DNA of 56,661 nt from Nanobdellota archaeon (GCA_038046485.1 JBBSWA010000002.1:1-56661), one strand, 5' to 3'; counted from the first letter of the stretch, positions 4,547 to 27,607 are shown. Numbers and translations: made by a program. The notes: generated by a model from the sequence alone, not told the origin.

Positions 4547-4677
4547 ATGTGCATAGCATCCTAAGGTTAAAATTCAATCAGTTCTATTTTATTGAAGAGC
4601 GTTGCGAGGGGTTGCTCCCTACGGGAACGCAGCTCCATCTAATATTCAGTCGAGAATTTTAAAGATGCTATGCACAT
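4547..4677 (+). repeat. long-hairpin element, copy 1 (MITE-like or structured-RNA-like)
   Basis: Outer arms ATGTGCATAGCATC / GATGCTATGCACAT, bulge CTAAGG, second helix TTAAAATTC / GAATTTTAA, core GAGGGGTTGCTCCCTACGGGAA. Flanked by the 10-nt direct repeat TCTATTTCAA (4535-4544 and 4678-4687). Confidence 0.8.
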
Positions 4678-4678
4678 T

Positions 4679-5146
4679 CTATTTCAATTGGTTTAGGCCC
4701 ATCCAAATCGTACGGTTGGTTGCAATAGCCTTTTCAAGTTTCTTTTCCAGATCTTGTAGAAAATCCAGGACTTGTTGGTCGCTTCCTAAATTAGGTTGGG
4801 TCATTTCTTGGCTTACGTCAGCTAAGGCAGTTTTCTGAGTATCCAATAAATTCATCAACGTGTTCAGAGGAGCCATAATATTGTTTAATTGAGTGCGAAT
4901 GCCTTCTTCTCGGGTTGCAAGACTCGCTACCATTCCTCCTTGCACAGGGAGTGCTTGGGTTATGTGCGCCTTAACAACGTTTTTTTCGTTATCATGTTGT
5001 TGTATAGCACCTTGAGGGGAACCAGGTGGAGGTGCTCTCCCTAGAACATTCGCAAATTGACTTCTTAAGCTGTTTACTTGGTTTTGGACACGAGTCATCT
5101 CTGTAATCAGTTTAGATTTCTCAACACTTAATTCTCCAATACGCAT
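4679..5146 (-). CDS. hypothetical coiled-coil protein
   Basis: 155-aa ORF with helical heptad-like sequence. TATA (RC GTTTAAATAAAT, 5166-5177) lies ~20-30 nt upstream of the ATG. Confidence 0.55.
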   Translation of the reverse strand: MRIGELSVEKSKLITEMTRVQNQVNSLRSQFANVLGRAPPPGSPQGAIQQHDNEKNVVKAHITQALPVQGGMVASLATREEGIRTQLNNIMAPLNTLMNLLDTQKTALADVSQEMTQPNLGSDQQVLDFLQDLEKKLEKAIATNRTIWMGLNQLK

Positions 5147-5264
5147 TTTTGTTTATTCACATCCCATTTATTTAAACTTGTCGTTTCACAGTATAGAATC
5201 AGGGTATAGAATAGAGTCTTACCGATAGAATAATTTAAATAGTGTGCATACAGGGGTGAAGGGT

Positions 5265-7091
5265 ATGGCAAGTTGGTTGAGCACAGCAGGTACCTTTGAT
5301 GCTTCAGGTCCTCTAGTGACTCTAATTCCAGCTGCATACCGTGCGGATGTAACGCTTTTCTTATGGGGTGGTTTGATTTTAGTCTTGCTCTCGGCTTATT
5401 TCAGTGTGCGTAAGATTGAGGAGAATTTAACCCGAGTAATGGGGTTGTACCTCTTCATAGGTTTGTTCTCGTATGCTCTAACTGGGCATCTATCGACAAC
5501 AATCTTTTTTGGAGGGATCATCGTAGTGATGCACTTCTTGAGTCGCTTGCGTGCTCGTCGTCAAGAGTTCGGCTCTGGCGAAGAGCAAGCACTGGCAGAT
5601 CGAGGAGCGGGAAGTCCGAAGGCAAGACAAAATATAGAAAGAGTAGTTCGGGTGGAGGAAGGGCTAGCTCAAGATCCAATTCCAGAAGTGGCTGCAATGG
5701 GTTTGGAAGGAGCGCGTGAAGCTGAGGAGGCGGAGGCAGAGTTATCAGTTGAGGGAGGCGCTGTTGTTCTTCCGGAAGCAGAGTTGGAATTGCTCGATCT
5801 GGGTCTAAAGGATGAGGTAAAAGTCATAGCGCATGAAGAACGTTTGAAGCAAATCGCCTCCGCAATAGCTGGGCTGCAGGAGCTTCCACAGACCGTGCAG
5901 GCTTCTATGGATCTTACGTTGGAGTTTCTTCATGAATTAGTCTTGGCGAGTGAAGGGGTTGTTGAATCTGAAAAAAGTGCAGATCAGGATCGATTAAGGG
6001 TAATATCAAAGATGGAAAAAGTGTTAGGGGCGCTGAAAAAAGCAGCTAGGCGAGCGCAAGCGTTCAAGAAGGAAGAGCAAGCCATTGAAGGTAAATTGGG
6101 GAAGTTGGGAAGTAAGAAGATTAGGGAGGTTTCTGAAGAGATAACAAAGAAAGAAAAGCGCTTGGATGCGTTAAAAGAAGATAAATCAGCCGGGCAAGAG
6201 TTGATCATCTCGTTGAGGCAAGAAATCAAAAGCTTTGGGGAGGGTTACGAGTCTCTTCAGAGAGCAGAAAGGGTTTTGTCTGGATTAAGGACGCAGTTGG
6301 GAAATTACTTGACCCAGACGAAAGAGCAGTTGGGTAAGATTGCGTCAACAGTAAATAACATAGGTTCAGTAGAAAAAACCCTGGGAGGGTTTGAAGCGCG
6401 GCAAGGTACGTTAAAGGAAAAATTAGCTAAGGAGCAGGGTAAGTTTGCAAGTGTAGTAGTGGACTTGGGCCATGATAAGTTGGAGGGCTTTTTGCAGCAA
6501 GTGGATGAGTTGGTTGTGCGCTCTAAAGAAGGCATGTCTAGCTTCTTTGATGCTTGGGTAGAATCCAAGAAGGCGTTGTTTACGCTCTGCATAAACCTGA
6601 AAAGTTTTTTGGAGCAGGTAACGGCTTTAGCGGCAGAAACGCATGGTTTAGAGTCGCTTTCTGCAGCGAGCGCAAAATTGCAGGATCAAGTGACAGAAGG
6701 CTTTGCTCAATTAGAGGGTTTAGCAGAGAAGCTGTTGGGTAATAATCCTGTGGTTGAAGCGGAGTTAGAGCAGATTACTCGCTTGTCCAAGCAAACAGAA
6801 GCACAGCTTTTGCAAGGGGTGGAAGTGGAAAACAACATGTTCGAGCGTACAATGAGCGAAGTGGAGCTAACACAAAAGCAGATCAACGCATTTCAAAAAG
6901 GGGTAGAAGAAGAGCTGCAAAGTTTGGAGCAAACAAAAAATCTGACGTTTAGCAGTTTGGACAAAATCATAAAGTTGGTCGCTGTAAAAACAGAGGAACT
7001 CAGCAGCGAGGTAACGCGCAGTGCAGCAGAATTATCAAGCGAAATGGCTTCTACTGCAGCAGAAGTGGGCGAAGCAAAAAAGGTGGCGTGA
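5265..7091 (+). CDS. membrane-anchored long coiled-coil protein (hypothetical)
   Basis: Track ORF starts 5244. ATG 5265 (MASWLSTAG...) lies ~25 nt after AATAATTTAAATAG. N-terminal hydrophobic segments are followed by ~480 aa of E/K/L/Q-rich helical sequence. Confidence 0.6.
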   Translation: MASWLSTAGTFDASGPLVTLIPAAYRADVTLFLWGGLILVLLSAYFSVRKIEENLTRVMGLYLFIGLFSYALTGHLSTTIFFGGIIVVMHFLSRLRARRQEFGSGEEQALADRGAGSPKARQNIERVVRVEEGLAQDPIPEVAAMGLEGAREAEEAEAELSVEGGAVVLPEAELELLDLGLKDEVKVIAHEERLKQIASAIAGLQELPQTVQASMDLTLEFLHELVLASEGVVESEKSADQDRLRVISKMEKVLGALKKAARRAQAFKKEEQAIEGKLGKLGSKKIREVSEEITKKEKRLDALKEDKSAGQELIISLRQEIKSFGEGYESLQRAERVLSGLRTQLGNYLTQTKEQLGKIASTVNNIGSVEKTLGGFEARQGTLKEKLAKEQGKFASVVVDLGHDKLEGFLQQVDELVVRSKEGMSSFFDAWVESKKALFTLCINLKSFLEQVTALAAETHGLESLSAASAKLQDQVTEGFAQLEGLAEKLLGNNPVVEAELEQITRLSKQTEAQLLQGVEVENNMFERTMSEVELTQKQINAFQKGVEEELQSLEQTKNLTFSSLDKIIKLVAVKTEELSSEVTRSAAELSSEMASTAAEVGEAKKVA

Positions 7092-7095
7092 TTCT

Positions 7096-8001
7096 ATGAA
7101 GTCAAAGCATCATAGTAAGGGTGTGATTTATGTCATAATTTCAACGCTTATGTTTGCGAGTTATGGTGTCTGGTCAAGATTTTTGGGGGATCTGGGGTTT
7201 GGAATCTTTTTTCAGGGATGGACGAGAGCTCTTCTTATGATTGCCATATTACTGCCTGTTCTGATCAAGCGCAAAGAACTGATTGTGATTGCAAAAAGGG
7301 ATTGGAAGTGGTTAGTTGTTTTCTTGGTGTTTACTTCCGGTACTCAAGTTCCTCTTTACTATGCATTCAACCATATGGATATTGGGACGACGTCATTGTT
7401 GTTTTTCGTCACGATGTTAATTACGATGTATGTGGTGGGTGTTATTTTCCTTAATGAAAAAATGAGCTGGGTCAAAGGAATTGCGTTTCTCTTGGCGTGT
7501 TTCGGCCTCTATTTTGTATTTTCCTTCTCTATGACGAAGTTCGCGTTGCTTGCTGCTCTAGCAGCAGTGCTCAACGGCGTTGCTAGTGGTGGAGAAGTGT
7601 CGTTTTCTAAAAAACTATCAGGAAGTTATTCTCCGTTGTATCTGGTTATATTAAGCCAAGCCATAATTGCCATCACGCATTTTCCATTTTCTCATTTATT
7701 CCAAGAGGTTCAATATGTGCCTGAGTTCAACATGACGTGGCTGTACATGGTTGCCTATGCCATTGCCGGCGTTCTTGGTTTTGGTTTGCTCATTGCTGGG
7801 CTGAAGTATCTGGAATCAAGTGTCGGCGGTTTGCTAGGATTGCTGGAGATCGTGTTCAGTGTCAGTTTCGGGATTCTGTTTTTCAGTGAGTTGCTCACGC
7901 TTCGCATAATCATCGGTGGTCTGATTATTATGTTAGCTGCTGCTTTACCACATATAGTTGAATTCCGTTTTGTAGAAAAATGGTTAAAAACACTAACCTA
8001 G
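7096..8001 (+). CDS. EamA/DMT-family transporter
   Basis: About 10 hydrophobic helices in two halves, typical of the drug/metabolite transporter fold. Start moved to ATG 7096 (MKSKHHSKG), just after the stop of the upstream gene. Confidence 0.65.
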   Translation: MKSKHHSKGVIYVIISTLMFASYGVWSRFLGDLGFGIFFQGWTRALLMIAILLPVLIKRKELIVIAKRDWKWLVVFLVFTSGTQVPLYYAFNHMDIGTTSLLFFVTMLITMYVVGVIFLNEKMSWVKGIAFLLACFGLYFVFSFSMTKFALLAALAAVLNGVASGGEVSFSKKLSGSYSPLYLVILSQAIIAITHFPFSHLFQEVQYVPEFNMTWLYMVAYAIAGVLGFGLLIAGLKYLESSVGGLLGLLEIVFSVSFGILFFSELLTLRIIIGGLIIMLAAALPHIVEFRFVEKWLKTLT

Positions 8002-8003
8002 AA

Positions 8004-8258
8004 TCACTCAATCTTTACTTTCTTTCCAAAGGCTTGTCCGGGCATGCCGGTTTCGAAGATGACACGTAAGGCGCCTTTGTTGCCGTGAGCGGAGGCAATC
8101 TTTCCAATCATGTCCTTTTTGCCTGTGTTATAGACCACTTTCTTACCCACGAGTTTCATGGCGTCCGCCCGCTTGGTCAAGCTATCGACTAGAACGATCA
8201 TTTGGTTCTCCGAACAGGTATGTCGGTTTCGGCAAAAGTTGTTGATGACGCCTTCCAT
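8004..8258 (-). CDS. rpl35ae: 50S ribosomal protein L35Ae (eL33)
   Basis: 84 aa. The C-terminal GKIASAHGNKGALRVIFETGMPGQAFGKKVKI matches the conserved L35Ae core (GKI..HG..G.VRA.F..GLPGQA.G). Confidence 0.85.
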   Translation of the reverse strand: MEGVINNFCRNRHTCSENQMIVLVDSLTKRADAMKLVGKKVVYNTGKKDMIGKIASAHGNKGALRVIFETGMPGQAFGKKVKIE

Positions 8259-8342
8259 AGAGAGTTCAGAGCTCTGGTTTATTTATAAAGCTTACGTCCT
8301 TCATTCGAAAAGTTTATATACATATACATATATACTAACAAA

Positions 8343-8555
8343 ATGGCTAAGCTCATCAATGTTTCCGACGATGTGTACAACACGTTGAAGGGTCTTAAAG
8401 GTAAGGAGAGTTATTCGGTAGTAATTAGACAACTTTTGCAGGGCCATTCAAACAAAGAAAAAGTATTGTCTTTTTTCGGCCGGGGTGGAGTGGATGCCAA
8501 AGCAGTAGCTGAACTTAAAGAAGGCTGGAAGAAATGGTCCGAAAAATATGTTTAG
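8343..8555 (+). CDS. VapB-like antitoxin
   Basis: 70-aa ORF overlapping the start of the downstream PIN gene by 22 nt. N-terminal MAKLINVSDDVYNTLKGLKG resembles archaeal PIN-associated antitoxins. Confidence 0.65.
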   Translation: MAKLINVSDDVYNTLKGLKGKESYSVVIRQLLQGHSNKEKVLSFFGRGGVDAKAVAELKEGWKKWSEKYV

Positions 8556-8911
8556 ATTCGGATGTCATCATTGCCTTATTGAATAAGGAGGCTACTCCAC
8601 AACAAGCCTTAGAGTCTTCTGATGCAATTTTATGCATAACAGCCATCAATGCATTTGAGATCTGGTATGGTAGAAAAAATGAAGAGACGGTGCATGAGCT
8701 TTTGGCATGGTTGGAGATCATTCCGATAAATGATACTGTTGTGCGTTTAGCAGCAGATATATTACGGGATTTAAAAAAACAAGGAGCGATTCTTGATTTT
8801 AAGGATCTATTTATTGCGGCAGCATGCATTGTGAATGACCTCGAGTTATTAACCTACAATCAGAAGCATTTTGTCCGTTTAAAGAAATATGGGTTGAAGT
8901 TAGTTGAGTAG
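8534..8911 (+). CDS. vapC: PIN-domain toxin VapC
   Basis: 125 aa. N-terminal LDSDVIIALL carries the first acidic residue; size and hydrophobic/acidic pattern are PIN-like; paired with a small upstream ORF. Confidence 0.75.
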   Translation: MVRKICLDSDVIIALLNKEATPQQALESSDAILCITAINAFEIWYGRKNEETVHELLAWLEIIPINDTVVRLAADILRDLKKQGAILDFKDLFIAAACIVNDLELLTYNQKHFVRLKKYGLKLVE

Positions 8912-8922
8912 TGAGTCAGAGG

Positions 8923-9321
8923 CTATCGTTCCCATTCATTAATATCTGGGTGGAAGTCGACTTGGTATTCAGGAATTCCAATAGAAATGCCATATTCCTT
9001 CGCCCGATCGTATTGCTCTTTGCTTGTTCGATCGATTTTAAAGACTTTATGGTGAAAGATAATATAATGGGTAGAGTCGTTTTTGTAGTCAGCATACCAA
9101 TCGCGTTTAGAATCTAAAGCCTCGCTCAATTCATGAGCAATACCATCAGCTTGTTCTTGAGGGATCTCGACCGTGTGCAGCGTCCACTGCTTCACCCATG
9201 GGGTTTTATGTCGTTCGGTTACAGCTTCAACCTTTGTCGAAACAATCTTGACCTTTTTAAGAACTTCACCGTGTTCCAGGCTTTCTTCAATGATAACTCC
9301 GGTGAAAGGTGGGGGTGTCAT
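8923..9321 (-). CDS. hypothetical protein
   Basis: 132-aa ORF in a tight operon-like position upstream of the GTPase gene. No family recognised. Confidence 0.5.
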   Translation of the reverse strand: MTPPPFTGVIIEESLEHGEVLKKVKIVSTKVEAVTERHKTPWVKQWTLHTVEIPQEQADGIAHELSEALDSKRDWYADYKNDSTHYIIFHHKVFKIDRTSKEQYDRAKEYGISIGIPEYQVDFHPDINEWER

Positions 9322-9344
9322 GGTGAATGCATCCGCTCTCGGTT

Positions 9345-10088
9345 TTATTTAATCTTTCCCGTCTGCCAGTCTTTAAGGATCATCTTGGAAGTTCGTTCAA
9401 TGTCCAGTTCAGCACCTTTCTTGAGCAGGTTCTTCTTTTTAGCAATAGCAAATAAAGTGTCTTCAAATTCAGAGCTTACTTCAACGCCATAGTGAGCTTC
9501 GATCTTGCCAGGGTACGTTTCCATGAATTCCATAATAACCACATCAGGGTTCGCGACTTGATTGAATTCCAGGGTGCCAATCAGGGCGTGTTTGTTGTCA
9601 TTCTTTTCTCGGTAAGGAACCACTCCTGGAGTGTCCAAAAACATGATACGGTTGTCCATTTTGACTCGTTGAACTCCCGTGGTAAATCCACTCACCGAAC
9701 TAGTGGGTGCAGCCTTTTTTCCTTTCAAGGCATTGATTAAGGAGGATTTGCCTACATTGGGATATCCAAGAACTCCCACAGTAAAGACTTCTTGATTTTT
9801 GTAGGCTCTTTGTCCTTCGATCAGGATGCGTTCTCGCAGTAACGTCGTACCGTGATGATCCTTAGCAGATACAAACACAGAAGGGTGTAAGGTGATTTGA
9901 TCCATGAGTTTCTTGTCCACCAAGTCGCATTTGGTGATCACATAAATCAAGGGTTTCTTGGCTTCGCGCACTTTATCTTCTACTTCAGCGTTTCGGGTTT
10001 CATCCATGAGCCGTGCATCCAGTAAAAGAAGCAGGATATCGGCTTGTTCAATCACGTTGTTGACAATCTTCCAGTAGCTACGTACCAT
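9345..10088 (-). CDS. circularly permuted GTPase (YlqF/RbgA/Nug1-like ribosome-biogenesis GTPase)
   Basis: Motif order is G4 (TKCD), then G1 (GYPNVGKSSLIN), then G3 (DTPG). That order is diagnostic of the cpGTPase family. Confidence 0.8.
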   Translation of the reverse strand: MVRSYWKIVNNVIEQADILLLLLDARLMDETRNAEVEDKVREAKKPLIYVITKCDLVDKKLMDQITLHPSVFVSAKDHHGTTLLRERILIEGQRAYKNQEVFTVGVLGYPNVGKSSLINALKGKKAAPTSSVSGFTTGVQRVKMDNRIMFLDTPGVVPYREKNDNKHALIGTLEFNQVANPDVVIMEFMETYPGKIEAHYGVEVSSEFEDTLFAIAKKKNLLKKGAELDIERTSKMILKDWQTGKIK

Positions 10089-10138
10089 GTTCTGAAGTAA
10101 GGGGGAGGGTATTATAAACTTGGTGTAGAATAAAGCGT

Positions 10139-10789
10139 CTAACCCTTGAGTAGTTTTTGGATTTCTAGACCCTTTCCTTTTTCGATTTCTTCAAGGCTGA
10201 GGCCGCAAAGTTCATGGGGAAATACGATCCATTGGTCGGTTGTATGGATAAAAAAATCAGGTTTTTGATCGGTCTGATTTCGGTGGGGTTTGAAGTATAC
10301 TGTGGCAATTCGAATTTCTTGAGGCATATGATTCTGCAAGCCTTTTTTTAGTGCATCCATCACTGCTTTCAAACTGAGGCCCGTCTCATAGACGTCGTCA
10401 ATCAATAAAACCCGATCATTGGAAGAGACTTTCTCGGTGATATAGCTTAGATTATGCACAGCAATTGTACGTTTCATCTCATCGATACCAGAATAGGCAC
10501 TGGTTCGAATGGCAATATGATCGGTTTTCACACCATGGTATTCTAGAAATTCTTGTACAGCGATTCCCACAGGGCTTCCACCTCTCCAGATTCCAACTAA
10601 GAAACTAGGCTTGAAGCCAGAATCCAGTATCTTTTTCCCGAGTAAGAATGAGTCTTTTAGCAGGCTATCTGCAGAAATATAGAGCTTGTCGCCCTTCTCT
10701 TTATTCTCCATAAAATGTGTAAGTTTACTAAGGCTTTTATTCTTTTCTGTATATTCGAGATAAATAATGCACTTGGGGTGAGAAGGCAT
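10139..10789 (-). CDS. purine phosphoribosyltransferase-family protein
   Basis: PRPP-binding motif VLLIDDVYETGLSL, and FLVGIWRGGSPVG typical of type I PRTases. An alternative start at ATG 10711 (MENKEKGD) is possible. Confidence 0.75.
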   Translation of the reverse strand: MPSHPKCIIYLEYTEKNKSLSKLTHFMENKEKGDKLYISADSLLKDSFLLGKKILDSGFKPSFLVGIWRGGSPVGIAVQEFLEYHGVKTDHIAIRTSAYSGIDEMKRTIAVHNLSYITEKVSSNDRVLLIDDVYETGLSLKAVMDALKKGLQNHMPQEIRIATVYFKPHRNQTDQKPDFFIHTTDQWIVFPHELCGLSLEEIEKGKGLEIQKLLKG

Positions 10790-10853
10790 TTCCGTAGTAA
10801 TAAATCTTCATTAGAGCAACCTTTAAATATTAGTTAGTATTAGACTAACTAAA

Positions 10854-11399
10854 ATGAAAAAGGAAGAATCGGTGCTGGAGTTGTTCTTTAATGAGCCAAC
10901 AAAGCACTGGCATTTTGAAGGCATCCTGAAATCAGCCAAAATCAGCCGCCCTCAAGCCGTGCAATGGATCAAAAAATTCATGCAAGAAGGGCTTGTTCAA
11001 CGCCTCAAACCTAGAGGAAAAATGCCCTATTACACAGGCAACTATGAACACCCATCTTATCGAACAAAAAAAAGGATTTACACTCTAAACCAGCTTTACA
11101 AGATAGGTTTCATCACTCATTTAATGACACTTCCTAAGGCCAAAAGCGTCATCCTCTTTGGTAGTTTCGCCCGGGCGGACTGGCACAGCGAAAGTGATAT
11201 TGATTTATTTGTATACGGCAATCCAGAAGGTCTAAATCAGTCTAAATACGAACGATTGCTCCACAGAGAAATCCAGCTTTTCAATGCACAAAGTCCAGAA
11301 GATCTTAAAAAAATGGGAATTCCACTGCTCTTAAACATTCTTAAAGGCCAAACCATAAAAGGAACTCCTGATTTCCTTGCGGTAAAGATCCATGCCTAG
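10854..11399 (+). CDS. MNT-type nucleotidyltransferase with N-terminal wHTH (antitoxin-like)
   Basis: ILFGSFARADWHSESDIDLFVY matches the GS..(x)n..DxD minimal nucleotidyltransferase motif. Overlaps the downstream HEPN gene by 8 nt. Confidence 0.75.
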   Translation: MKKEESVLELFFNEPTKHWHFEGILKSAKISRPQAVQWIKKFMQEGLVQRLKPRGKMPYYTGNYEHPSYRTKKRIYTLNQLYKIGFITHLMTLPKAKSVILFGSFARADWHSESDIDLFVYGNPEGLNQSKYERLLHREIQLFNAQSPEDLKKMGIPLLLNILKGQTIKGTPDFLAVKIHA

Positions 11400-11868: not shown

Positions 11869-11877
11869 TAAATAAAG

Positions 11878-11999: not shown

Positions 12000-12053
12000 A
12001 TAGGAGCGTAAAAACCGGTACAATTTATAAACATTTAGTGCCAAAGAGACCAG

Positions 12054-12614: not shown

Positions 12615-12619
12615 GGTTT

Positions 12620-13354: not shown

Positions 13355-13407
13355 GAATAAAAGAGATTTTCTTATATTATATAAAGGTTAACTATTTATA
13401 GGAGTAA

Positions 13408-13830: not shown

Positions 13831-13869
13831 GTCGATAATTATTTAAATATCTCTTGCTTAACGGTCTAT

Positions 13870-18251: not shown

Positions 18252-18349
18252 GGCATTGTAGAACGAATAATCTTCTTAAAGCTATCGTCAGAAACTCAAT
18301 AACAGCAATACTTATAAGTACTTATAGCTTCCTATAGCTAATTATAGCC

Positions 18350-19739: not shown

Positions 19740-19782
19740 TCAACATCTAGACATAAAGGAGTATAAAAAGCTTAAGAATTAT

Positions 19783-19960
19783 ATTTGTTTAGCATCCTCA
19801 GGTCGAAATCCATTTAACATGCTATCACAATGCGTTGCGAGGGGTTGTGCTCAGAAACGAAGTTTCTGGCACGCCAGAAATCTTATGATTTCTGTGTGCA
19901 CCCTTCGGGAACGCAGCATCTATAACCGAACTTCAAGGATTTCGAAGATGCTAAACAAAT
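19783..19960 (+). repeat. long-hairpin element, copy 2 (with a 53-nt internal insertion)
   Basis: Arms ATTTGTTTAGCATC / GATGCTAAACAAAT, bulge CTCAGG, second helix TCGAAATCC / GGATTTCGA. The core GAGGGGTTG ... CCCTTCGGGAACGCAGC is interrupted at 19848-19900 by two CAGAAA-type hairpins. TAAGAAT lies on both flanks (19773-19779, 19963-19969). Confidence 0.8.
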
Positions 19961-19970
19961 GCTAAGAATC

Positions 19971-20351
19971 TCATTTCTCTGTAAACTTTCTAAACGTCTC
20001 GGCAATGTCAATCACGTATTTGCCTTCATCGAGTTTGACAATAAGAGGTGTTTTTTTCTTAAACAGATTAACCAAGTCAATCTCGTATTTGCCCGGTTCC
20101 GTAATGTTAATGGCTTCAAGATCTAAGATCACGGGCAGGCCTTCTTGGTACCCATCGCCGATGATTTCAAGAACATCCTCTTCAATTTGGTTTTTTTGCT
20201 CTTCGCTTAAATCCTGCAATGGAGGGGATAAGCCAGGCATTTTTTCTTTGCGGATGAAAAAGAACATACGATTTCCACAAACGCAGCCTTTGACGACTTC
20301 GCTGCCAGCTTCTCCGTACAGGTGTCCGCATTTGACGCATTGGTGGGGCAT
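19971..20351 (-). CDS. archaeal Zn-ribbon protein (DUF2072-like)
   Basis: N-terminal MPHQCVKCGHLY...KGCVCGNRMFFF is a CxxC...CxC zinc ribbon. It is the third gene of a GTPase / DUF2073-like / Zn-ribbon trio. Confidence 0.65.
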   Translation of the reverse strand: MPHQCVKCGHLYGEAGSEVVKGCVCGNRMFFFIRKEKMPGLSPPLQDLSEEQKNQIEEDVLEIIGDGYQEGLPVILDLEAINITEPGKYEIDLVNLFKKKTPLIVKLDEGKYVIDIAETFRKFTEK

Positions 20352-20353
20352 GG

Positions 20354-20731
20354 TTATCTCTTTTTGTGTTCATTCGTAAGCAATTGGATCTTATGAGGGT
20401 CTCTTTTGATTTCTTTTATAACATTTGCGGGGCCAATCACAGTAAATCCTTCACGGTTTCCCAATAACAGGTGAACTAATGTGTGACGTATTTTTTGCAA
20501 AAGCGCCTCGTTTTCAGGATGGGCTTCGAGGTAGCTGAGTTCAATGCCTTTAAACTTGTGGTTGATTCCTTCAAGGGTTTGTTCAAGGAGCGCAGTTTCT
20601 TCTTCAGTCTCAAGTTTTCCTTCGAGAAGAACAATCTTGTCTTGTTTGACAATGTCTAAGAGGTGGTGGATGCGTAAAGAAGTCTCTAAGGGTTCAACTT
20701 CAGAATAGGGAATAAATTGAAGAGTGAGCAT
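20354..20731 (-). CDS. conserved archaeal protein (DUF2073-like)
   Basis: 125 aa. LQFIPYSEVEPL...IVKQDKIVLLEGKLETEEETALLEQT resembles the family that accompanies the GTPase and Zn-ribbon genes in archaea. This rests on my recollection of the family, not a search. Confidence 0.55.
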   Translation of the reverse strand: MLTLQFIPYSEVEPLETSLRIHHLLDIVKQDKIVLLEGKLETEEETALLEQTLEGINHKFKGIELSYLEAHPENEALLQKIRHTLVHLLLGNREGFTVIGPANVIKEIKRDPHKIQLLTNEHKKR

Positions 20732-20733
20732 GG

Positions 20734-21363
20734 TTAAGAGGCAACCTCAAAAAGGGCTTTGTAGAGTTCGTCCATGTTTTTGCCGGTTTTTGCACTAATT
20801 CCAATGACATTGTATTGAGGAAAAGCCGTCTGAATTTTGCGCAGCTTGCTTTTTTTAAGATCGATTTTATTGGCAACAATAATCATGGGGATTTTTCTTG
20901 CTTCTAGGTTTCCAATTAAGGTGATATTCACTTGGCTGTAAGGGTCTAGTGTGCTGTCCATGACAACAATAACGGCATCCATATGGTCAAGCCATTTGAT
21001 GCTCTCGATGATGCCCTTGGTGGCTTCTTTTGCGCGTTGTTTGGCGTCTTTGGCTTTGATGCCATAGCGTAAAAAATCTTCATAATCGATGCGGGTCGCA
21101 ATACCTGGGGTGTCAGCAAGGTTCACACTGAGTTCCTTGCCTTCATAGGTAATGGTGATCTCTTCTTTGATTTGGATTTCGCGCGTTTCATGAGCGATGT
21201 TGCTCACAATCCCCAGTTCCTCGCCTGTCCAGTCTTTGCAAATGCGGTTCGCAAGGGTCGTCTTTCCTCCATTGGGAGGTCCATAAATGCCTAGTTTGAT
21301 GTGCCGTCGGCGTAAGAAGAGTTTTTTCAAAAAGCCATGGACTTGGCCAAAAAATGAGCTCAT
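20734..21363 (-). CDS. small GTP-binding protein
   Basis: G1 GPPNGGKTT, G3 DTPG, G4 NKID. 209 aa. Confidence 0.8.
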   Translation of the reverse strand: MSSFFGQVHGFLKKLFLRRRHIKLGIYGPPNGGKTTLANRICKDWTGEELGIVSNIAHETREIQIKEEITITYEGKELSVNLADTPGIATRIDYEDFLRYGIKAKDAKQRAKEATKGIIESIKWLDHMDAVIVVMDSTLDPYSQVNITLIGNLEARKIPMIIVANKIDLKKSKLRKIQTAFPQYNVIGISAKTGKNMDELYKALFEVAS

Positions 21364-21421
21364 AGAAGAGAGAAACCTAGTTTTGTGTATTTAAACGTTC
21401 CGAATTTCACAGAGTTTAGGT

Positions 21422-21829
21422 TTATCCGATGAAGGTAAGGTTAATCAGAGTGCCGACATTGGTGATCAAGTTTTTCCCTTGGGTGGGTTGTCCAAAGATA
21501 GGTTGGTTGAGGAAGTAAATAAACTGATTTTCTTTATAGGTTAAGACAAGGTCTTCTTGATCTTGCAGGGTGACGCTGTAGTTAAATCCGGCTAAGCTAT
21601 ACGGGAGTTCAAAGGTGCGTGAGTAGCCATCTCCAACAGTTTCGGCAAGGTCAGCTTCAGTAATGATGATGTCGGCGATTTCTTGCATCTTGGCCTGGTC
21701 ATTGAGGGTGATGACTTGGCCGGTGCGGGTGTGGAGCAATGCAGCAAATAAGGCCAAAATAAGAAACATAAACCCAACAAGGGTGATGAATTCAATCGTC
21801 GCCTGAGCCTGATTATATTTGTTTAGCAT
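21422..21829 (-). CDS. archaeal type IV pilin-like protein (class III signal peptide)
   Basis: The track ORF extends to 22012 through a repeat. Plausible start is ATG 21829-21827: MLNKYNQA/QATIEFITLVGFMFLILALFAAL (short leader, Q..IEF, hydrophobic helix). The ATG lies inside the left arm of hairpin element copy 3. Confidence 0.65.
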   Translation of the reverse strand: MLNKYNQAQATIEFITLVGFMFLILALFAALLHTRTGQVITLNDQAKMQEIADIIITEADLAETVGDGYSRTFELPYSLAGFNYSVTLQDQEDLVLTYKENQFIYFLNQPIFGQPTQGKNLITNVGTLINLTFIG

Positions 21830-21942
21830 CCTAAGGTGAAAACTCCTCCGATTAAGGTTTACGTTCGTTGTGGGGGTTGGCCCCTGCGGGGAAACAGAAC
21901 TTTGGAGAGAAACAGAAAGAGTTTTCAAGATGCTAAACAAAT
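21817..21942 (+). repeat. long-hairpin element, copy 3
   Basis: Arms ATTTGTTTAGCATC / GATGCTAAACAAAT, bulge CTAAGG, second helix TGAAAACTC / GAGTTTTCA, core GGGGTTGGCCCCTGCGGGG. Confidence 0.8.
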
Positions 21943-22018
21943 ACGTCTTATTTTTTAGTGCTCGAGCTCCAAAACAGAAATTTTGTGTTGTTTGAGCTCG
22001 AGAAGGGTTCATGGGGAG

Positions 22019-22444
22019 TTAGGTTTCAGCAAGGTAAACACTGTTTCCTTGACTGATGATCTTGATTTTAAAGGTTCCGGAATGAAAGCTGTTGCTGATA
22101 TTGGGGGTATACGGGGTTTGCAGGGGAATATCAGTAAAAAAGATGGCTTCACTCAGGCCCTTGTTGGTCTCAAAGGCGACGACAATTTCATTGTCACTGT
22201 TGACATAAAATTCCTTGCTGTTGGAGGGAAAATTAACTTCAAGGGTTGTCCAGCTATTTTTACCAAGGCTGTAGACGGCAATGATGTTGTTAATTAAGTC
22301 GCTGCCAATGCGGATGACTTGGCTGCTGGCAATTTGGTCAGTGGTTTGTCTTGCGCGCTCAAAGAGTAGAAGGCCTGCAGGGACCATAATCACTAAGATC
22401 ACGCCTAAGATCACTAGGTATTCAACAGAGACTTGGCCACGCAA
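22019..22444 (-). CDS. archaeal type IV pilin-like protein (class III signal peptide)
   Basis: TTG start preceded by GAGGTGA 7 nt upstream. (M)RGQVSVEYLVILGVILVIMVPAGLLLF is the canonical RGQ.S.EYL prepilin N-terminus. Confidence 0.75.
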   Translation of the reverse strand: MRGQVSVEYLVILGVILVIMVPAGLLLFERARQTTDQIASSQVIRIGSDLINNIIAVYSLGKNSWTTLEVNFPSNSKEFYVNSDNEIVVAFETNKGLSEAIFFTDIPLQTPYTPNISNSFHSGTFKIKIISQGNSVYLAET

Positions 22445-22487
22445 AACAGTTCACCTCTTAGTGATCTTAAGGAAGAAGTGCTTATAT

Positions 22488-22707
22488 AAAGATTTGGATT
22501 CAAACGTTCATAGGGAAAGAATCGGTTTTGTAGAAAGTGAGGTCTTGCCGCCTTATTGTGAGCATCCGTATATTGAATAGCTAAGCGCCAAGGGGGATCG
22601 CCCCATCTGGGGAGGGGCGCTTATCTAGTAAAAGGTTAAGATGCGAACGGGCTGCAAGACCAAGCGATAGCGAAACTTTCTACAAAGCCGAAAGAATCAA
22701 AATCTTT
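22488..22707 (+). ncRNA. ~220-nt extended hairpin, candidate structured RNA related to the hairpin-element family
   Basis: Nested complementary segments: AAAGATTTGGATTC/GAATCAAAATCTTT, CGGTTTTGTAGAAAGT/ACTTTCTACAAAGCCG (one T-G on the + strand), GGTCTTGC/GCAAGACC, GCATC/GATGC, TAGCTAAGCGCC/GGCGCTTATCTA. Apical core GGGGGATCGCCCCATCTGGGG. No ORF. Confidence 0.5.
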
Positions 22708-22734
22708 ATTAACCCTCTCGAGAAACCAAGCTCT

Positions 22735-23724
22735 ATGAAGATGTCTCGACGGGAGCGCCGTTTGCAGAGTCGTACAGAGCGCTTGGATAAGCTGCGTAAA
22801 GAGGTACATAAAGCCTATGTGGCTAAAGAGAGACACACACCAAAAGAGATCCAGTATAAAGGTCTTCTTAAGTTAATGCGTGATCATTACAAGCCCCTCA
22901 TGATAATTCCCTTGGCCATGTTAGTGTTCTCACTGGTCGTGATTTTAATGACGTATAGCGAAACAGGCTCTTTGATGTATAAAGGAGTTTCATTGCAAGG
23001 GGGTATTTCATTGACCATTCCGATGAAGGAGCAGGTGGATGTTCCGGCCTTGGAGTCTTTTTTGAGGACTCGCTTACCACAAAGTGATCTGGACATTCGC
23101 ATTCTTTCAGAAGCAGGGAAGCAAAAGGGTTTGCTTATAGATGCTTCGAATGTGAAAGAGGATATCTTCCTAGGGGCACTAAGAGAACGTATGACCTTAG
23201 GAGATTTTTCGATTGAAACCTTGGGTCCGTCCTTAGGTGATGCATTTTTTACACAGGCCTTGTGGGCCTTGGCAATTGCTTTTGCTTTGATGAGTCTGGT
23301 GGTATTCCTTTATTTTAGAACCTTGGTGCCTTCAGCGGCAGTGATTATAGCAGCGGTTTGTGATATGTTGTTTGCCTTAGCAGGAGTTAATCTCTTGGGA
23401 TTGAGGCTAAGTACAGCGGGTTTGGCTGCTTTTTTGATGTTGATTGGTTATTCAGTAGATACAGACATTTTGTTGACGGCTCGTGTGATGAAGAGTAAGG
23501 AAGGTTCTGTGTTCGACCGAGTAGTAAGCGCATTGAAGACAGGTTTCTTAATGAACATCGTGGCCTTGGCCACAACAATTGTAACTTTGATTTTCACGCA
23601 GTCACCGGTAATCATGCAGATCATGTGGGTGTTGCTCTTCGGGTTGATTGCGGACATCATCAATACATGGATTCAGAATGCAGGCATATTACGATATTAT
23701 TTAGAAAAAAAGGGTGTTCAGTAA
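22735..23724 (+). CDS. secF: protein-export membrane protein SecF
   Basis: C-terminal six-TM region with the SecF-type pattern (VVFLYFRT, LIGYSVDTDILL). Immediately followed by secD. Confidence 0.8.
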   Translation: MKMSRRERRLQSRTERLDKLRKEVHKAYVAKERHTPKEIQYKGLLKLMRDHYKPLMIIPLAMLVFSLVVILMTYSETGSLMYKGVSLQGGISLTIPMKEQVDVPALESFLRTRLPQSDLDIRILSEAGKQKGLLIDASNVKEDIFLGALRERMTLGDFSIETLGPSLGDAFFTQALWALAIAFALMSLVVFLYFRTLVPSAAVIIAAVCDMLFALAGVNLLGLRLSTAGLAAFLMLIGYSVDTDILLTARVMKSKEGSVFDRVVSALKTGFLMNIVALATTIVTLIFTQSPVIMQIMWVLLFGLIADIINTWIQNAGILRYYLEKKGVQ

Positions 23725-25318
23725 AATGGGAAAATTAAGAAAAATGTTTACCAACCTGAGGATCTTGATCTTAGTCATATTCTTGATTTTGGGTTTATTT
23801 GCCGTGTATCCCAATCCATGGAATGAGGGCCTCGCCATTCGCAACGTGGAAAAAAACAGTTCAGCTAGTTTGGCGGGAATAGAAAATCCAGCTCCGACTT
23901 CTACGCCGATGAGTCGCGAGCGCATCCTTGCGGTAAACAACAATCCAGTTACGGATGTAAATTCTTTTTACAGCATGCTTTCGGTTGTGCCGTCAAACGC
24001 TACAGTGACCTTGAAAACGAACAAAAACATATATCGCTTGGTAGCACGCCCCGTTATAAATGGTACCGTACAAGATTTTGGTTTGTCGGTGTATCCAGCT
24101 CCTCAGACGAACATCCGTAAAGGCTTGGACTTGCAAGGAGGAACCCGAGTCATTTTGCAGCCTGAAGGGGAAGTGACAAAAGAGGATTTAGATCTCGTAA
24201 TGGATAACATCAAGGAGCGCTTGAATGTGTATGGTTTAAGTGATATCGTGGTGCGTGCCATAACAGACCTGGCGGGCAAGAGCTATATCTTAGTGGAGAT
24301 TGCCGGCGCGAATCAGCAAGAAGTACGTGATCTATTGTCTAAGCAGGGTAAGTTCGAGGCCAAGGTAGGCAACACAACGGTTTTTAAAGGGGGTGGAGAC
24401 GTTACGTATGTATGTCGTTCCGCTGATTGTTCAGGCTTGGATCCCCAGGCGGGTTGCCAGCAGCAAGAGGGTGGATGGTATTGTAGTTTCCGTTTCTCGA
24501 TCAGTTTAACTCCAAAAGCGGCGCAGCATCAAGCGGATGCCACGCGGTTATTAACGGTTGTATCTTCTCCTTCAGGAAATTACCTGAGTGAAAAATTAAA
24601 TCTATTTTTGGATGATGAAGAAGTAGATGCACTAAACATCGGAGCAGAGTTGAAAGGTTCGCCAATGACTGAAATACAGATCAGTGGTTCGGGTAGTGGG
24701 GTCTCTCATCAAGAAGCCATTCAGAATACCTTGGATAGTATGAAGCGCCTGCAGACGATTTTGATTACCGGCAGTCTCCCAGTAAAGTTAAACATTGTGA
24801 AGATGGACAGTATCAGTCCCGTATTGGGTGAAGAGTTTTTGAAGAATGCTATATTAGTTTGCCTGTTGTCGGTATTAACCGTGAGCATTATATTGTTCAT
24901 TCGCTATAGGCGTTTTAGTGTCTCCATTCCAATTATCATTACAATGTTGTCTGAGGTTTTCTTGACATTAGCCCTTGCCGCGCTTATAGGGTGGAACATT
25001 GACCTCGCTTCCATTGCAGGTATCATTGTAGCCATCGGTACAGGTGTGGATGACCAGATCGTGATTGCGGATGAAACTTTATATAAGAAAAAACTAGAAG
25101 GCGAGGAAGAAGGTTCTTGGAAGGATAAGTTAAAGAGCGCATTTTTCATCATTTTCGCCGCTTATTTTACGCTCACAGCAGCCATGATTCCCTTGCTCTT
25201 TGCAGGTGCAGGTTTATTAAAAGGTTTCGCGATCACAACCATTCTTGCAGTAACCATCGGTGTTCTCATTACCCGCCCAGCCTACGCAGCCTTTATAGAA
25301 ATCTTGACGAAAGAATAA
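23714..25318 (+). CDS. secD: protein-export membrane protein SecD
   Basis: Periplasmic-domain motif GLDLQGGTRV and a C-terminal six-TM region (GTGVDDQIV). The start may be ATG 23726. Confidence 0.8.
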   Translation: MFSKMGKLRKMFTNLRILILVIFLILGLFAVYPNPWNEGLAIRNVEKNSSASLAGIENPAPTSTPMSRERILAVNNNPVTDVNSFYSMLSVVPSNATVTLKTNKNIYRLVARPVINGTVQDFGLSVYPAPQTNIRKGLDLQGGTRVILQPEGEVTKEDLDLVMDNIKERLNVYGLSDIVVRAITDLAGKSYILVEIAGANQQEVRDLLSKQGKFEAKVGNTTVFKGGGDVTYVCRSADCSGLDPQAGCQQQEGGWYCSFRFSISLTPKAAQHQADATRLLTVVSSPSGNYLSEKLNLFLDDEEVDALNIGAELKGSPMTEIQISGSGSGVSHQEAIQNTLDSMKRLQTILITGSLPVKLNIVKMDSISPVLGEEFLKNAILVCLLSVLTVSIILFIRYRRFSVSIPIIITMLSEVFLTLALAALIGWNIDLASIAGIIVAIGTGVDDQIVIADETLYKKKLEGEEEGSWKDKLKSAFFIIFAAYFTLTAAMIPLLFAGAGLLKGFAITTILAVTIGVLITRPAYAAFIEILTKE

Positions 25319-25355
25319 ATTCATCCTTAAGAATAGATTGGGATGTTTACTCCAA

Positions 25356-25997
25356 TTATAATGGTCTGCTTATATCAAATCGGATTTCAACATATCTCTT
25401 GGTAGACGAATTACTCAATGAATAAGAAAGTGTCCTGCCTGGCTCTATTGCGATTGCCCACACATGATGATCTGATCCGGGAATCATTCTAGAGGTCAAT
25501 GCATCTGCTGGAAATTCTTGCTTACTTTCTGTTCCATTGAGTGCGGAGGAGCCACCATATTGAGACCTACTCTCTTCTTGTCCATCCTCATACACGTGAA
25601 CATGCCTTAAGTCCAAGTGCGATCCCAGATTTCTTAAAACCCATGCCCTCGAATAATCATTCCCCACCTGCACAGAGACGTGAATTTCTTGACTATTGAA
25701 ATGAGAAACGTGGATAGTCATTTCTGATCCCGTTAATTTGTTCATATTGTCTTGAGTTACAACGCCGAGATAAGTCTGACTGCATAATTTCTCCAGTGAT
25801 TCCCAAAATTTATCTTTGCAGTCTGTAGAAGTAGAGATAGGCTTAGGTTCACGTGCATGTTGTCTAGTCAGAGAAGTCATGCACTCTGCTATGCTGTCAT
25901 TGCATGCATCTGTGTGCACTCCAATTGGTTTAGAGGCGCACGCAGTAAGTAAAGCAGTTAATCCAACAAGGGTTCTCGTTCTTCCGTTGAGACTCAT
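25356..25997 (-). CDS. putative lipoprotein/secreted protein
   Basis: The track ORF runs to 26123 across a tRNA gene. Plausible start is M43 (25997): MSLNGRTRTLVGLTALLTAC, a signal peptide with a lipobox-like LTAC. Confidence 0.5.
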   Translation of the reverse strand: MSLNGRTRTLVGLTALLTACASKPIGVHTDACNDSIAECMTSLTRQHAREPKPISTSTDCKDKFWESLEKLCSQTYLGVVTQDNMNKLTGSEMTIHVSHFNSQEIHVSVQVGNDYSRAWVLRNLGSHLDLRHVHVYEDGQEESRSQYGGSSALNGTESKQEFPADALTSRMIPGSDHHVWAIAIEPGRTLSYSLSNSSTKRYVEIRFDISRPL

Positions 25998-26042
25998 GAA
26001 AAAGTAGGATTGCGCTCCATTTAAATAATTAGTTAAAAAAAG

Positions 26043-26173
26043 TGGGCCCATCCGGACTTGAACCGGAGACCTTCTCCATATCAAAAACCAAGGTTTTTGG
26101 AACAAACCTATGGTTCGCGTCAAGGAGACGTCATATGCAGTGCGCTATGGCATAGCCACTAGACTATGGGCCC
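26043..26173 (-). tRNA. tRNA-Val(GAC) with two introns (about 19 nt in the D-loop region, about 39 nt at the canonical 37/38 site)
   Basis: Hand-folded. Acceptor GGGCCCA/TGGGCCC, discriminator A. D arm GTCT-AGTGGCTA-TGAC after removing GCCATAGCGCACTGCATAT (boundaries ambiguous by 1-3 nt). Anticodon stem TCTCC/GGAGA, loop TTGACG...T. Variable AGGTC. T arm TCCGG-TTCAAGT-CCGGA. 131 - 58 = 73 nt mature. Confidence 0.8.
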
Positions 26174-26227
26174 TCGTGTCGAGGTTGGGTCGCTTCTTTT
26201 TTAAAGCTTGCTACTTTCCAAGAAGGT

Positions 26228-26713
26228 ATGACCTATTACGACGACCTTGCAGCAGGCTATAATGAGCTCCATGGTGAAGAACAGGGGAAGAAGTTAAGGT
26301 TGATTGCAGAGCACCTTAAGGTTTCAGCAGAAGACTCCATCTTAGACATCGGCTGTGGGACAGGGCTTTCAGCCTCATTCTTTAAAGGCAAGATCACAGG
26401 AATTGATCCCTCTGAGGGACTCTTAAAGCAGTGTCCATTCCCTACAGTAAAGGGTACCGCCGAAAACCTGCCTTTTCCAGATCATAGTTTTGATCTTGTT
26501 TTATGCCTAACGGCCATTCATCATGCAGAAAACCTAGAAAAGGCGTTGATGGAAATGAAGCGAGTAGGTAAAAAGGATTGGGTGATTTCAGTGCTAAAAA
26601 AATCAGAGAAGCGCAAAAAGATTGAAGAATCACTTAAAACCCATTTTAAGGTGGTTGAGCAATTAGAAGAAGAAAAGGACGATATCTTCATCTTGCAGAG
26701 CAAAAATATATAA
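26228..26713 (+). CDS. class I SAM-dependent methyltransferase
   Basis: ILDIGCGTG SAM-binding motif I and a downstream FDLVLC motif. 161 aa. Confidence 0.8.
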   Translation: MTYYDDLAAGYNELHGEEQGKKLRLIAEHLKVSAEDSILDIGCGTGLSASFFKGKITGIDPSEGLLKQCPFPTVKGTAENLPFPDHSFDLVLCLTAIHHAENLEKALMEMKRVGKKDWVISVLKKSEKRKKIEESLKTHFKVVEQLEEEKDDIFILQSKNI

Positions 26714-26736
26714 AGGCTTTTGATCCAGAAAAGGAC

Positions 26737-27471
26737 ATGGATTGGCGCGATTATTTCAGTCTTTTTTTGAAGAGTTTTAATCCCCGTTCATACAAGTTCC
26801 TGGCCGATCGTTTTTTGAATGATGTAGTGAGGTATTGGTTTTTTTTGCTTGTTTTCTCGTTTGCGGTGATGCTCATTTTATTCATTCCCATCTTGGCAAC
26901 CTTAAGTTCGGACTTGCAGGAGAAGGCAAATCAAATCGATGATTTCTCAATGGATGGTCATATCACCTTGACAAAGCCATTAGTACTCATCCAGGATCCG
27001 TTGATTTTAATGGATTTTAACCGTACCTATCCGACCAATGAAAAGGTGCTGATTACCAAGGATTCGCTCTTTTTTAAGAAGTATTACTGGTTTGAATATG
27101 AGCAGGTGGTGTTTAGCGATATCAAGAATTTAAGAAATCCTGAGGCGATAGGGCTCATGGCCTTTGCGGCCTTGCTCATCATTCCTAGTTTGTTGCTCTT
27201 GGTATTCTTGGTGTTTCTGATTAAGGATAGCTTAATTGTATTGGTGATTGCTGCCTTGGGGTTTGCAGCAGCGTACCTGTTGAAATATCGAGTGTCGTTT
27301 GGTAAGAGTGTGAGGATAGCGATTTTTGCAGGAACCTTGCTTGTATTTTTGGAGTTTGCCTTGTTTCCTTTTTGGCGTTCATTCTGGATCCCCTTCTTGA
27401 TTTTTGTGATTTATTATGGAATGGCTATCGCTCAGGTAGGTGAGGAGAAGTTCGAGTCTAGACCCTTCTAA
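26737..27471 (+). CDS. integral membrane protein (hypothetical)
   Basis: 244-aa ORF with about 5 hydrophobic helices. No family recognised. Confidence 0.55.
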   Translation: MDWRDYFSLFLKSFNPRSYKFLADRFLNDVVRYWFFLLVFSFAVMLILFIPILATLSSDLQEKANQIDDFSMDGHITLTKPLVLIQDPLILMDFNRTYPTNEKVLITKDSLFFKKYYWFEYEQVVFSDIKNLRNPEAIGLMAFAALLIIPSLLLLVFLVFLIKDSLIVLVIAALGFAAAYLLKYRVSFGKSVRIAIFAGTLLVFLEFALFPFWRSFWIPFLIFVIYYGMAIAQVGEEKFESRPF

Positions 27472-27480
27472 TTTTTTCGT

Positions 27481-27607
27481 ATTTGTTTAGCATCATCAGG
27501 TCAAAACTCCCTTAGCAGAAACTTCAAGTTCGTCGATGGGGGATGCCCCCTACGGGGGAATAGAACTTTAGAAGTGAACATGAAGAGTTTTGAAGATGCT
27601 AAACAAA
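27481..27607 (+). repeat. long-hairpin element, copy 4
   Basis: Arms ATTTGTTTAGCATC / GATGCTAAACAAA, bulge ATCAGG, second helix TCAAAACTC / GAGTTTTGA, core GGGGGATGCCCCCTACGGGGG. The 14-nt direct repeat TTTTTCGTATTTGT occurs at 27473-27486 and 27612-27625. Confidence 0.8.

Follow-up and report, generated by a model that had tools for sequence, protein, structure and literature searches.

Hairpin repeats of DPANN archaea as probable miniature transposable elements of an archaeal IS66 lineage

Classical IS66 insertion sequences (ISs) carry TnpA/TnpB accessory genes, and the mechanism of the IS66-family transposase is poorly characterised. Where inverted termini are combined with a duplication fixed at 8 bp, a cut-and-insert reaction of the DDE type is indicated. 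Short repeats that fold over their full length are described from bacteria, and one such group, the Rickettsia palindromic elements, occasionally occurs in frame within open reading frames (ORFs). ISDge4, of the IS66 family, has GTAACTGCTCAGCA at its ends and a direct repeat of 8 bp (PMC12898284). In a MITE-Tracker census of miniature inverted-repeat transposable elements (hereafter MITEs), a Woesearchaeal genome stands among the densest archaea, at 105 MITEs per Mb (NAR 2024, PMC11602168). Here we analyse a stretch of 56,661 nucleotides from a Nanobdellota archaeon (GCA_038046485.1, JBBSWA010000002.1:1-56661; the whole stretch is called the window below), derived from Hainich aquifer metagenomes, in which an earlier note had singled out a family of long hairpins and had read them as a folded RNA or hairpin DNA under selection. 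We conclude that these hairpins are very probably MITEs of an archaeal IS66 lineage, mobilised by an IS66-family transposase, and not a new class of RNA. The assignment follows from their GTA...TAC ends, their 8-bp duplications, the homology of their termini to IS66 repeats, longer intermediate elements that bear the same hairpin module, and an autonomous IS.

The four copies reported earlier are all present on the + strand where they had been placed, and exact limits are given for each below. The family is not confined to four, as a fifth, divergent copy lies on the same strand, and all five keep their target duplications or remnants of them. The copies and their parts, including the terminal inverted repeats (TIRs) and the second helix (P2) of copy 1, are as follows.

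4545-4679, + strand: copy 1, a putative hairpin MITE of 135 bp, with limits set by its GTA...TAC termini and target duplications
4545-4566, + strand: copy 1, left TIR and inner box, GTATGTGCATAGCATC followed by CTAAGG
4567-4575 paired with 4654-4662, + strand: copy 1, P2
4607-4627, + strand: copy 1, apex
4663, + strand: copy 1, single A
4664-4679, + strand: copy 1, right TIR
4537-4544 (left) and 4680-4687 (right): copy 1, target-site duplication TATTTCAA, perfect over 8 bp and abutting both termini
19781-19962, + strand: copy 2, a putative hairpin MITE of 182 bp with an apical expansion
19773-19780 (TAAGAATT) and 19963-19970 (TAAGAATC): copy 2, target duplication, 7/8 identical
21815-21944, + strand: copy 3, a putative hairpin MITE of 130 bp; covariance model 111.7 bits
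21807-21814 (GCCTGATT) and 21945-21952 (GTCTTATT): copy 3, decayed target duplication, 6/8 identical
27479-27610, + strand: copy 4, a putative hairpin MITE of 132 bp; covariance model 119.4 bits, E 2.9e-26
27471-27478 (ATTTTTTC) and 27611-27618 (ATTTTTCG): copy 4, target duplication, identical except for a 1-nt deletion
22524-22689, + strand: copy 5, a divergent single-module element of 166 bp with ends GGTTTTGTAGAAAG...CTTTCTACAAAGCC
22515-22523 and 22690-22698: copy 5, flanking direct repeat GAAAGAATC, perfect, 9 nt

A pattern derived from positions common to the four copies (TAGCATCNTNAGGT, 80-110 nt, AAGATGCTA) was scanned against one genome of each species and yielded at least 116 loci, nearly all in Woesearchaeota/Nanoarchaeota (DPANN) bins and often many per bin, with at least 16 loci in bin DeMMO3_35 among the matches listed. 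Hits in Duncaniella and Pedobacter were chance matches. Altogether, more than 130 copies of the hairpin architecture were found in these DPANN genomes. Viral contigs gave 0 matches to the hairpin module, and the 12 viral-contig matches to the terminal repeat lay within coding sequence and were dismissed as chance. Our literature search found no paper describing these hairpin MITEs.

The hairpin elements are mobile. Their canonical ends, 5'-GTAT(T/G)TG...CA(A/C)ATAC-3', are directly flanked by identical 8-bp direct repeats and belong to 16-bp inverted repeats (GTAT(T/G)TG..TAGCATC and GATGCTA..CA(A/C)ATAC). Among 136 testable copies, 53 showed an 8-bp direct repeat, with at most one mismatch, abutting the inverted termini; the duplication was perfect in 39 of these 53, and 46 of them had GTA...TAC ends. 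The duplicated target sequences are 26% G+C, and flanks paired across different copies as a control rarely reached 8 bp. In other respects, too, the elements have properties by which MITEs are defined: they are short (130-182 bp, below about 500 bp), consist almost entirely of helix or loop, have no coding capacity of their own, and combine inverted repeats and a fixed-length duplication with multiple copies (5 in 56.7 kb).

The lead to a partner transposase was provided by two elements of about 300 bp (L008 and L116), which have 22-bp repeats of the form GTAA(T/C)ACTTCA..A...TGAAG and perfect 8-bp duplications, and which hold two hairpin modules inverted relative to each other. Their repeats resemble the ends of ISDge4. 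A scan for the GTAA-type repeat identified it as the end of a large superfamily of non-autonomous DPANN elements, comprising forms with the repeat and one module (about 165 bp) and forms with the repeat and two modules (about 300 bp), both with exact IS-type repeats (GTAATACTTCA..CTGAAG) and perfect 8-bp duplications. Many contig ends stop just inside the IS-type repeat, at least 10 of them in bin H41-bin204_1 sharing one sequence, and one such end, read inward, is an ORF whose stop codon lies inside the repeat. The last residues of this ORF were back-translated, combined with the repeat and scanned against metagenome contigs. A complete autonomous IS of 1564 bp was recovered (L262:1641-3204), originating from the same aquifer and from sister populations. 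It has GTAA ends, the repeats GTAATACTTCAGTATTCTGAAG and GTAATACTTCAGTAACCTGAAG, and the perfect duplication GCATTTAA; its ORF of 443 aa scores 206 bits with the NCBIfam model NF033517 (IS66 family transposase), above the cutoff of 180, and 93.8 bits with Pfam PF03050 (DDE_Tnp_IS66), while its first ORF, of 45 aa, matches DUF2080 ('putative transposon-encoded protein') with 30.1 bits. Fourteen related IS loci (55-80% identity, plus short fragments) were found, nearly all in DPANN bins and mostly on IS-sized contigs. The architecture is kept across them, and the copy at L271 is flanked by the 8-bp duplication TTCCAACC. Two of the fourteen, both transposase fragments, come from bins rich in hairpin MITEs, DeMMO3_35 and CAZIEE01. 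None of the IS copies examined contains the hairpin module, the sole model match (L269:111-238) being located about 1 kb upstream of the IS.

Several further observations concern the superfamily and its ISs. At L156, L159, L164, L181, L193, L209, L215, L224 and L228, an IS66-type repeat and an 8-bp duplication enclose unrelated non-coding cargo of 86-1161 bp, and among these superfamily loci there is a 55-bp element that consists of almost nothing besides two repeats, which suggests that the MITE superfamily of DPANN genomes is large and diverse. A palindrome of 8-9 bp abuts the ATG of the DUF2080 ORF at L262:1700-1729 and at the same site in L269-L280; its sequence, GTAGCTAC-ATT-GTAGCTAC, covaries to GTAGTTAC/GTAACTAC, and it looks like an operator or translation-control hairpin. 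Within L262, GTACTTGTTTAGCTAC is identical at 13 of 16 positions to the MITE terminus GTATTTGTTTAGCATC. Other candidates for the partner were rejected: the search within the 116 MITE loci for solo ends, for convergent module pairs 2-3.6 kb apart and for recurrent ORF clusters returned housekeeping genes only, a 518-aa ORF at L232 had neither a Pfam hit nor a partner repeat, and the 1161-bp element at L193 is non-coding.

Alignment of the termini connects the window copies to this IS lineage. The first 22 nt of the MITE, GTATTTGTTTAGCATC followed by CTAAGG, correspond to the 5' strand of the outer helix (P1) plus the bulge and align to the IS repeats without gaps. They match the IS left-repeat consensus (GTAATACTTTAGCTTTCTGAAG) at 15 of 22 positions, the right-repeat consensus at 16 of 22 and the right repeat of L273 (GTATTACTTTAGCATCCTGAAG) at 18 of 22; the window copies match the latter at 15-17 of 22, whereas the mean for 22-mers that start with GTA and were drawn at random in the same loci is 8.3 of 22. 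At its right end, the MITE keeps the outer 16 nt only. Judged from this alignment, the conserved asymmetric bulge is the putative inner box (CTGAAG-like) of an IS66-type repeat and is found at just one end of the MITE; this box (NTNAGG) is unpaired in the folded strand because only the outer 16 nt are repeated in inverted orientation at the right end. The first bases differ to some extent, the window copies starting with GTAT, ATAT or GG and the longer module-bearing elements and the ISs with GTAA. The earlier note had argued that the helices are not transposase-recognised repeats, a view not supported in the light of the 8-bp duplications, the GTA...TAC ends and the match of the left 22 nt to the IS66 repeat. 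It had also stated that an autonomous IS with terminal repeats matching the arms would make the elements ordinary MITEs. Broadly, such an IS has now been found, with a match that is not exact (15-18 of 22) and in sister populations.

We then turn to the fold itself. Each of the four reported copies forms a single long hairpin (-43 to -69 kcal/mol, z -4.7 to -7.9; -47.3 kcal/mol and z -6.5 for copy 1, -68.8 kcal/mol and z -7.9 for copy 2). None of 200 shuffles folded as well as any of the four, and the reverse strand folds about equally. The shared architecture described before was recovered in each copy, namely an outer helix of 14-16 bp, a 6-nt bulge on the 5' side (CTAAGG, CTCAGG, CTAAGG and ATCAGG in copies 1-4) facing one A, a second helix of 9 bp, and then internal loops and an apex composed of a G-run, a C-run and a G-run. 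Except for an apical insertion of about 50 nt in copy 2, the four align over their full length. Covariation was assessed in an alignment of 108 non-redundant copies, and a covariance model was built from the same alignment. This model of homologues, a check akin to one that the earlier note had proposed, finds all reported copies with 40-124 bits: copies 1, 3 and 4 score 112-124 bits on the + strand (E 1e-24 to 1e-27; 123.9 bits and E 2.5e-27 for copy 1) and 32-39 bits on the - strand, and copy 2 is matched in both arms with 40.4 bits. Copy 5 is matched at 22536-22666 (+) with 28.5 bits (E 8e-5).

Five helices covary strongly in this alignment: P1 (columns 7-22 with 143-158), P2 (29-37 with 133-141), P3 (60-65 with 102-106), P4 (70-72 with 99-101) and an apical helix (87-89 with 95-97). 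Up to four Watson-Crick pair types occur per position, as exemplified by columns 61/105 (AU 33, CG 31, UA 26, GC 11). The earlier statement that the helices differ between copies yet change on both strands at once is borne out, with 92.9% of cells paired, compared to 37.5-45% after sliding the 3' partners by 1-3 columns, and with changes on both sides in 636 cells, compared to 182 ± 17 in shuffles. The covariation score was 0.449, as opposed to 0.144 for shuffled alignments, of which 0 out of 500 scored as high, and 0.066-0.130 for the slid controls. Parts of the bulge, together with seven pairs of P1 and one of P2, are invariant only because the search pattern prescribed them; the bulge consensus NTNA(G/A)G is, however, also present in copies found later by the covariance model, outside the pattern. 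In the apex, the C-run is able to pair with either G-run, in agreement with the two alternative hairpins proposed earlier: both reach -3 kcal/mol or below in 90 of 108 copies, and column 73 covaries with column 87 as much as column 97 does. Within single genomes, many distinct P2 sequences coexist, each of them compensated. Together, the covariation of the helices, including the inner ones, for which a transposase-binding repeat would give no explanation, and the preservation of the asymmetries in over 100 copies across many species suggest that intrastrand pairing is subject to selection or to biased repair.

Three other readings of the structure were discarded. The 6-nt bulge does not suit a K-turn of the L7Ae type, the G·A/A·G positions being unfit on both strands when inspected by eye. 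Pairing of the bulge (AAGG) with the 3' internal loop (CCUU) in a pseudoknot is contradicted by inconsistent complementarity in variants with an AAAG bulge. Finally, instead of an alternative inner-helix register, GCGTC/GACGC, mutual information supports the pairing of columns 60-63 with 103-106 and of 70-72 with 99-101, the register given in the earlier note.

Taken as IS66-lineage MITEs, the elements could work as follows. The left end consists of a 22-nt IS66-type repeat, GTAT(T/G)TG..TAGCATC plus the box NTNAGG, and the right end of the outer 16 nt in inverted orientation, with a fold-back module of about 95 nt, comprising P2-P4 and the G-run/C-run/G-run apex, between them. An IS66-family transposase acting in trans would cut at the GTA...TAC termini, and the element would be pasted into a staggered 8-bp cut, duplicating the AT-rich target. 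Internal pairing may be kept if a folded single strand or a DNA cruciform favours mobilisation or persistence, and repair within the hairpin might reinforce it. Since neither strand behaves differently from the other, we favour a cause at the level of DNA as likelier than one at the level of RNA. Recognition of the P2 sequence by the transposase is unlikely, given the many different compensated P2 sequences in one genome.

A number of points weigh against this assignment. Among the autonomous ISs found, none has a repeat that matches the window copies' ends (GTATTTGTTTAGCATC or GTATGTGCATAGCATC) in full, the best match being 18 of 22. As the earlier note had stated, the window itself offers no transposase: none recognisable by Pfam was present among the 40 ORFs scanned over its 56.7 kb, 16 of which lack any Pfam match. 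No empty site was recovered at the copy-2 locus, the only one covered, where 11 of 11 contigs were filled. Neighbouring copies on one contig are co-oriented in 20 cases and oppositely oriented in 5 (p = 0.004; 16 versus 5 when the window copies are left out), which mobilisation by an IS66-family transposase does not predict. A replication-strand bias was considered as the source of this co-orientation and rejected, as local GC skew by element strand averages -0.003 (p = 0.7); the direction of the flanking genes does not account for it either. Lastly, the reason we infer for the keeping of the inner helices is not one that a DDE transposase binding double-stranded ends would obviously supply.

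A more far-reaching and rather doubtful proposal assigns the fold-back module a role in cis in the transposition reaction, with IS66-family transposases acting on, or being strongly helped by, a folded single strand or a cruciform that pairs the ends; in a variant of this idea, the DUF2080 protein or the transposase would be titrated by the module, serving as a transposon-borne decoy or as a regulatory RNA or DNA. If the module is indeed cis-acting, the compensatory evolution of the MITEs would constitute a natural mutagenesis record of the folding requirement.

Pairing might also arise without any selection on folding, by snap-back copying of one arm or by repair that homogenises the arms of an extruded hairpin or cruciform. 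Palindromic DNA undergoes intrastrand templated repair, and a strand-blind process of this kind predicts the similar frequency of G·T and A·C mismatches that is observed (below). A snap-back origin would, however, give perfect palindromes, whereas every subfamily keeps the same asymmetries, with 6 versus 1 nt where P1 meets P2, internal loops that are unequal and an apex that lies off centre. The identity of these asymmetries across subfamilies rules out a pure snap-back birth of the palindrome. Homogenising repair, in turn, still needs the hairpin to form in vivo, and overlaps with the explanation by IS66-lineage MITEs rather than replacing it. We consider it unlikely that pairing is maintained by copying or repair without selection on folding.

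It is quite improbable, in our assessment, that the module is a structured non-coding RNA that rides on, or was captured by, the transposon and functions as RNA, for example by regulating the transposase or the host, its helices being kept for RNA folding. The strong covariation in four helices would fit such an RNA, as would the conserved unpaired nucleotides and an apex whose two alternative hairpins resemble a switch; moreover, the module is a portable unit that occurs in several transposon frames, and its absence from the autonomous IS implies that it is unnecessary for the transposase's own ends. Functional RNAs, however, tolerate G·U far more than A·C. The earlier note had taken T-G mismatches as favouring the + strand; family-wide, mismatches in P1-P4 amount to 78 G·T versus 101 A·C, or about 75 versus 68 when the doubtful pair 59-107 is omitted, which does not support such a preference. 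Both strands fold about equally well, and the orientation of the elements with respect to the flanking ORFs is nearly random (sense in 35 cases, antisense in 26, between divergent genes in 21 and between convergent genes in 8), no link of orientation to transcription being seen. Inspection of the conserved element by eye, with no scan for promoters made, revealed no promoter feature. Rfam gave 0 hits in the window at the gathering score, and a permissive match to MIR5512, a plant microRNA hairpin, is attributable to chance (28.6 bits versus a gathering score of 139). Of the selection on a folded nucleic acid proposed in the earlier note, the maintenance of pairing stands, while its RNA version is weakened by the lack of a G·U bias, of an Rfam family and of a fixed orientation.

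Neither attC recombination nor IS200/IS605 transposition yields target duplications or terminal inverted repeats. Single-strand DNA recombination sites, be they integron attC sites or IS200/IS605- or REP/RAYT-type ends for a tyrosine or HUH enzyme, would account for the imperfect pairing of these 57-180 nt hairpins, for their conserved extrahelical bases and for a structure better conserved than the sequence, as well as for the single orientation of the window copies and the co-orientation of neighbours (20 versus 5), yet they are extremely improbable here, since the fixed 8-bp duplications with inverted termini exclude attC-like and IS200/IS605-like mechanisms, the RYYYAAC/GTTRRRY cores are absent (the closest, GCTAAAC and GTTTAGC, are each one position off), flanking genes point both ways without forming a cassette array, and the ORF scan of the window revealed no gene for an integrase, TnpA-Y1 or RAYT.

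The surroundings of the elements are archaeal. The window encodes OapB/OapC, class III signal peptide proteins and TFIIE-alpha, and a tRNA scan found zero tRNAs in it. Adjoining copy 2 are the genes for OapC (19971-20351, -) and OapB (20354-20731, -), the latter known from gene calls on identical contigs; as these are origin-associated protein genes, a replication origin is possibly near copy 2. At 36707-37909 (+), a 400-aa protein of this DPANN host has a clear GGDEF diguanylate-cyclase domain (99 bits); GGDEF domains are uncommon in archaea. The apex of copy 2 (about 19848-19899) holds two extra small hairpins, CAGAAAC-GAA-GTTTCTG and CAGAAATC-TTAT-GATTTCTG. At L062, L043, L090, L010, L074 and L084, the apex is sometimes replaced by 2-3 extra small hairpins, giving variants of 146-258 nt; expansions similar to that of copy 2 are seen in relatives 146-190 nt long. 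A repeated mini-hairpin family as the source of the insertion in copy 2 was rejected, as no further copy was present in the window or the loci. Copy 5 is situated between an ORF ending at 22444 (-) and one starting at 22735 (+), and relatives at L092 and L115:586-716 have the ends GTAGAAAG...CTTTCTAC in common with it. Elsewhere, a truncated MITE half is followed downstream, at L003:1100-1300, by sequence rich in G+C that looks structured and may represent the gene of a small RNA, for example the signal recognition particle RNA.

The earlier note had placed all copies between genes, which does not apply to copy 3: it lies in frame within a called ORF of 196 aa (21422-22012, -). Together with its duplication, it has added 138 nt, in frame and free of stops, to this ORF. 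The part of the ORF downstream of copy 3 starts with MLNKYNQAQATIEF, which resembles a class III (pilin-type) signal peptide, and the ATG of this part comes from the GATGCTA of the copy 3 end. The insertion may have lengthened or re-started a pilin-like gene.

What had been a candidate for a new class of structured RNA is hereby replaced by a MITE family with a probable transposase family, exact ends and a defined target duplication. Annotation of DPANN genomes should profit from this, as the repeats break assemblies (at least 10 contig ends in one bin) and inflate ORF calls (copy 3), and they make up a visible share of genomes of about 1 Mb. With more than 130 copies and four covarying helices, the family further represents a natural dataset on a derivative of a DDE transposon in which pairing extends far beyond the terminal repeats; should pairing prove necessary for mobilisation, this would bear on IS66-family transposition.

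Among known systems, the single-transposase, ISBst12-like group of the IS66 family (for example ISDge4) shares with the elements described here the GTA(A/T) starts and the 8-bp duplication (9 bp for copy 5). The window copies differ from this group in starting with GTAT or ATAT, where the family usually has GTAA, and the MITEs carry a conserved internal fold-back module that the recovered DPANN ISs lack. In the archaeal IS, moreover, a DUF2080 ORF precedes the transposase, unlike in classical IS66. Integron attC sites are similar in being imperfect hairpins with extrahelical bases and with structure conserved above sequence; they have, however, neither target duplications nor GTA...TAC repeats, and form co-oriented arrays beside intI, with RYYYAAC/GTTRRRY cores. 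The part of the MITE census available to us (PMC11602168) reports a density consistent with the abundance seen here and is a catalogue, in which no structure, covariation or partner transposase is described. By description, and with no sequence similarity claimed, the elements can be likened to the ERIC/IRU, Correia/NEMIS, RUP and Rickettsia palindromic elements, which are likewise 100-170 bp long, non-coding, mostly intergenic and multicopy, and fold over their full length. The position of copy 3 in frame inside an ORF adds to the likeness to the Rickettsia elements. The differences from these bacterial hairpin repeats lie in the host domain (DPANN archaea), in the inferred transposase family and in the modularity of the hairpin, which occurs once or twice in longer elements. 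Measured against these systems, the hairpins, together with related composite forms, make up a MITE family that belongs to an archaeal IS66 lineage and is new, although ordinary in kind; what is unusual about them is the depth of compensatory conservation in a fold-back module absent from the parent IS.

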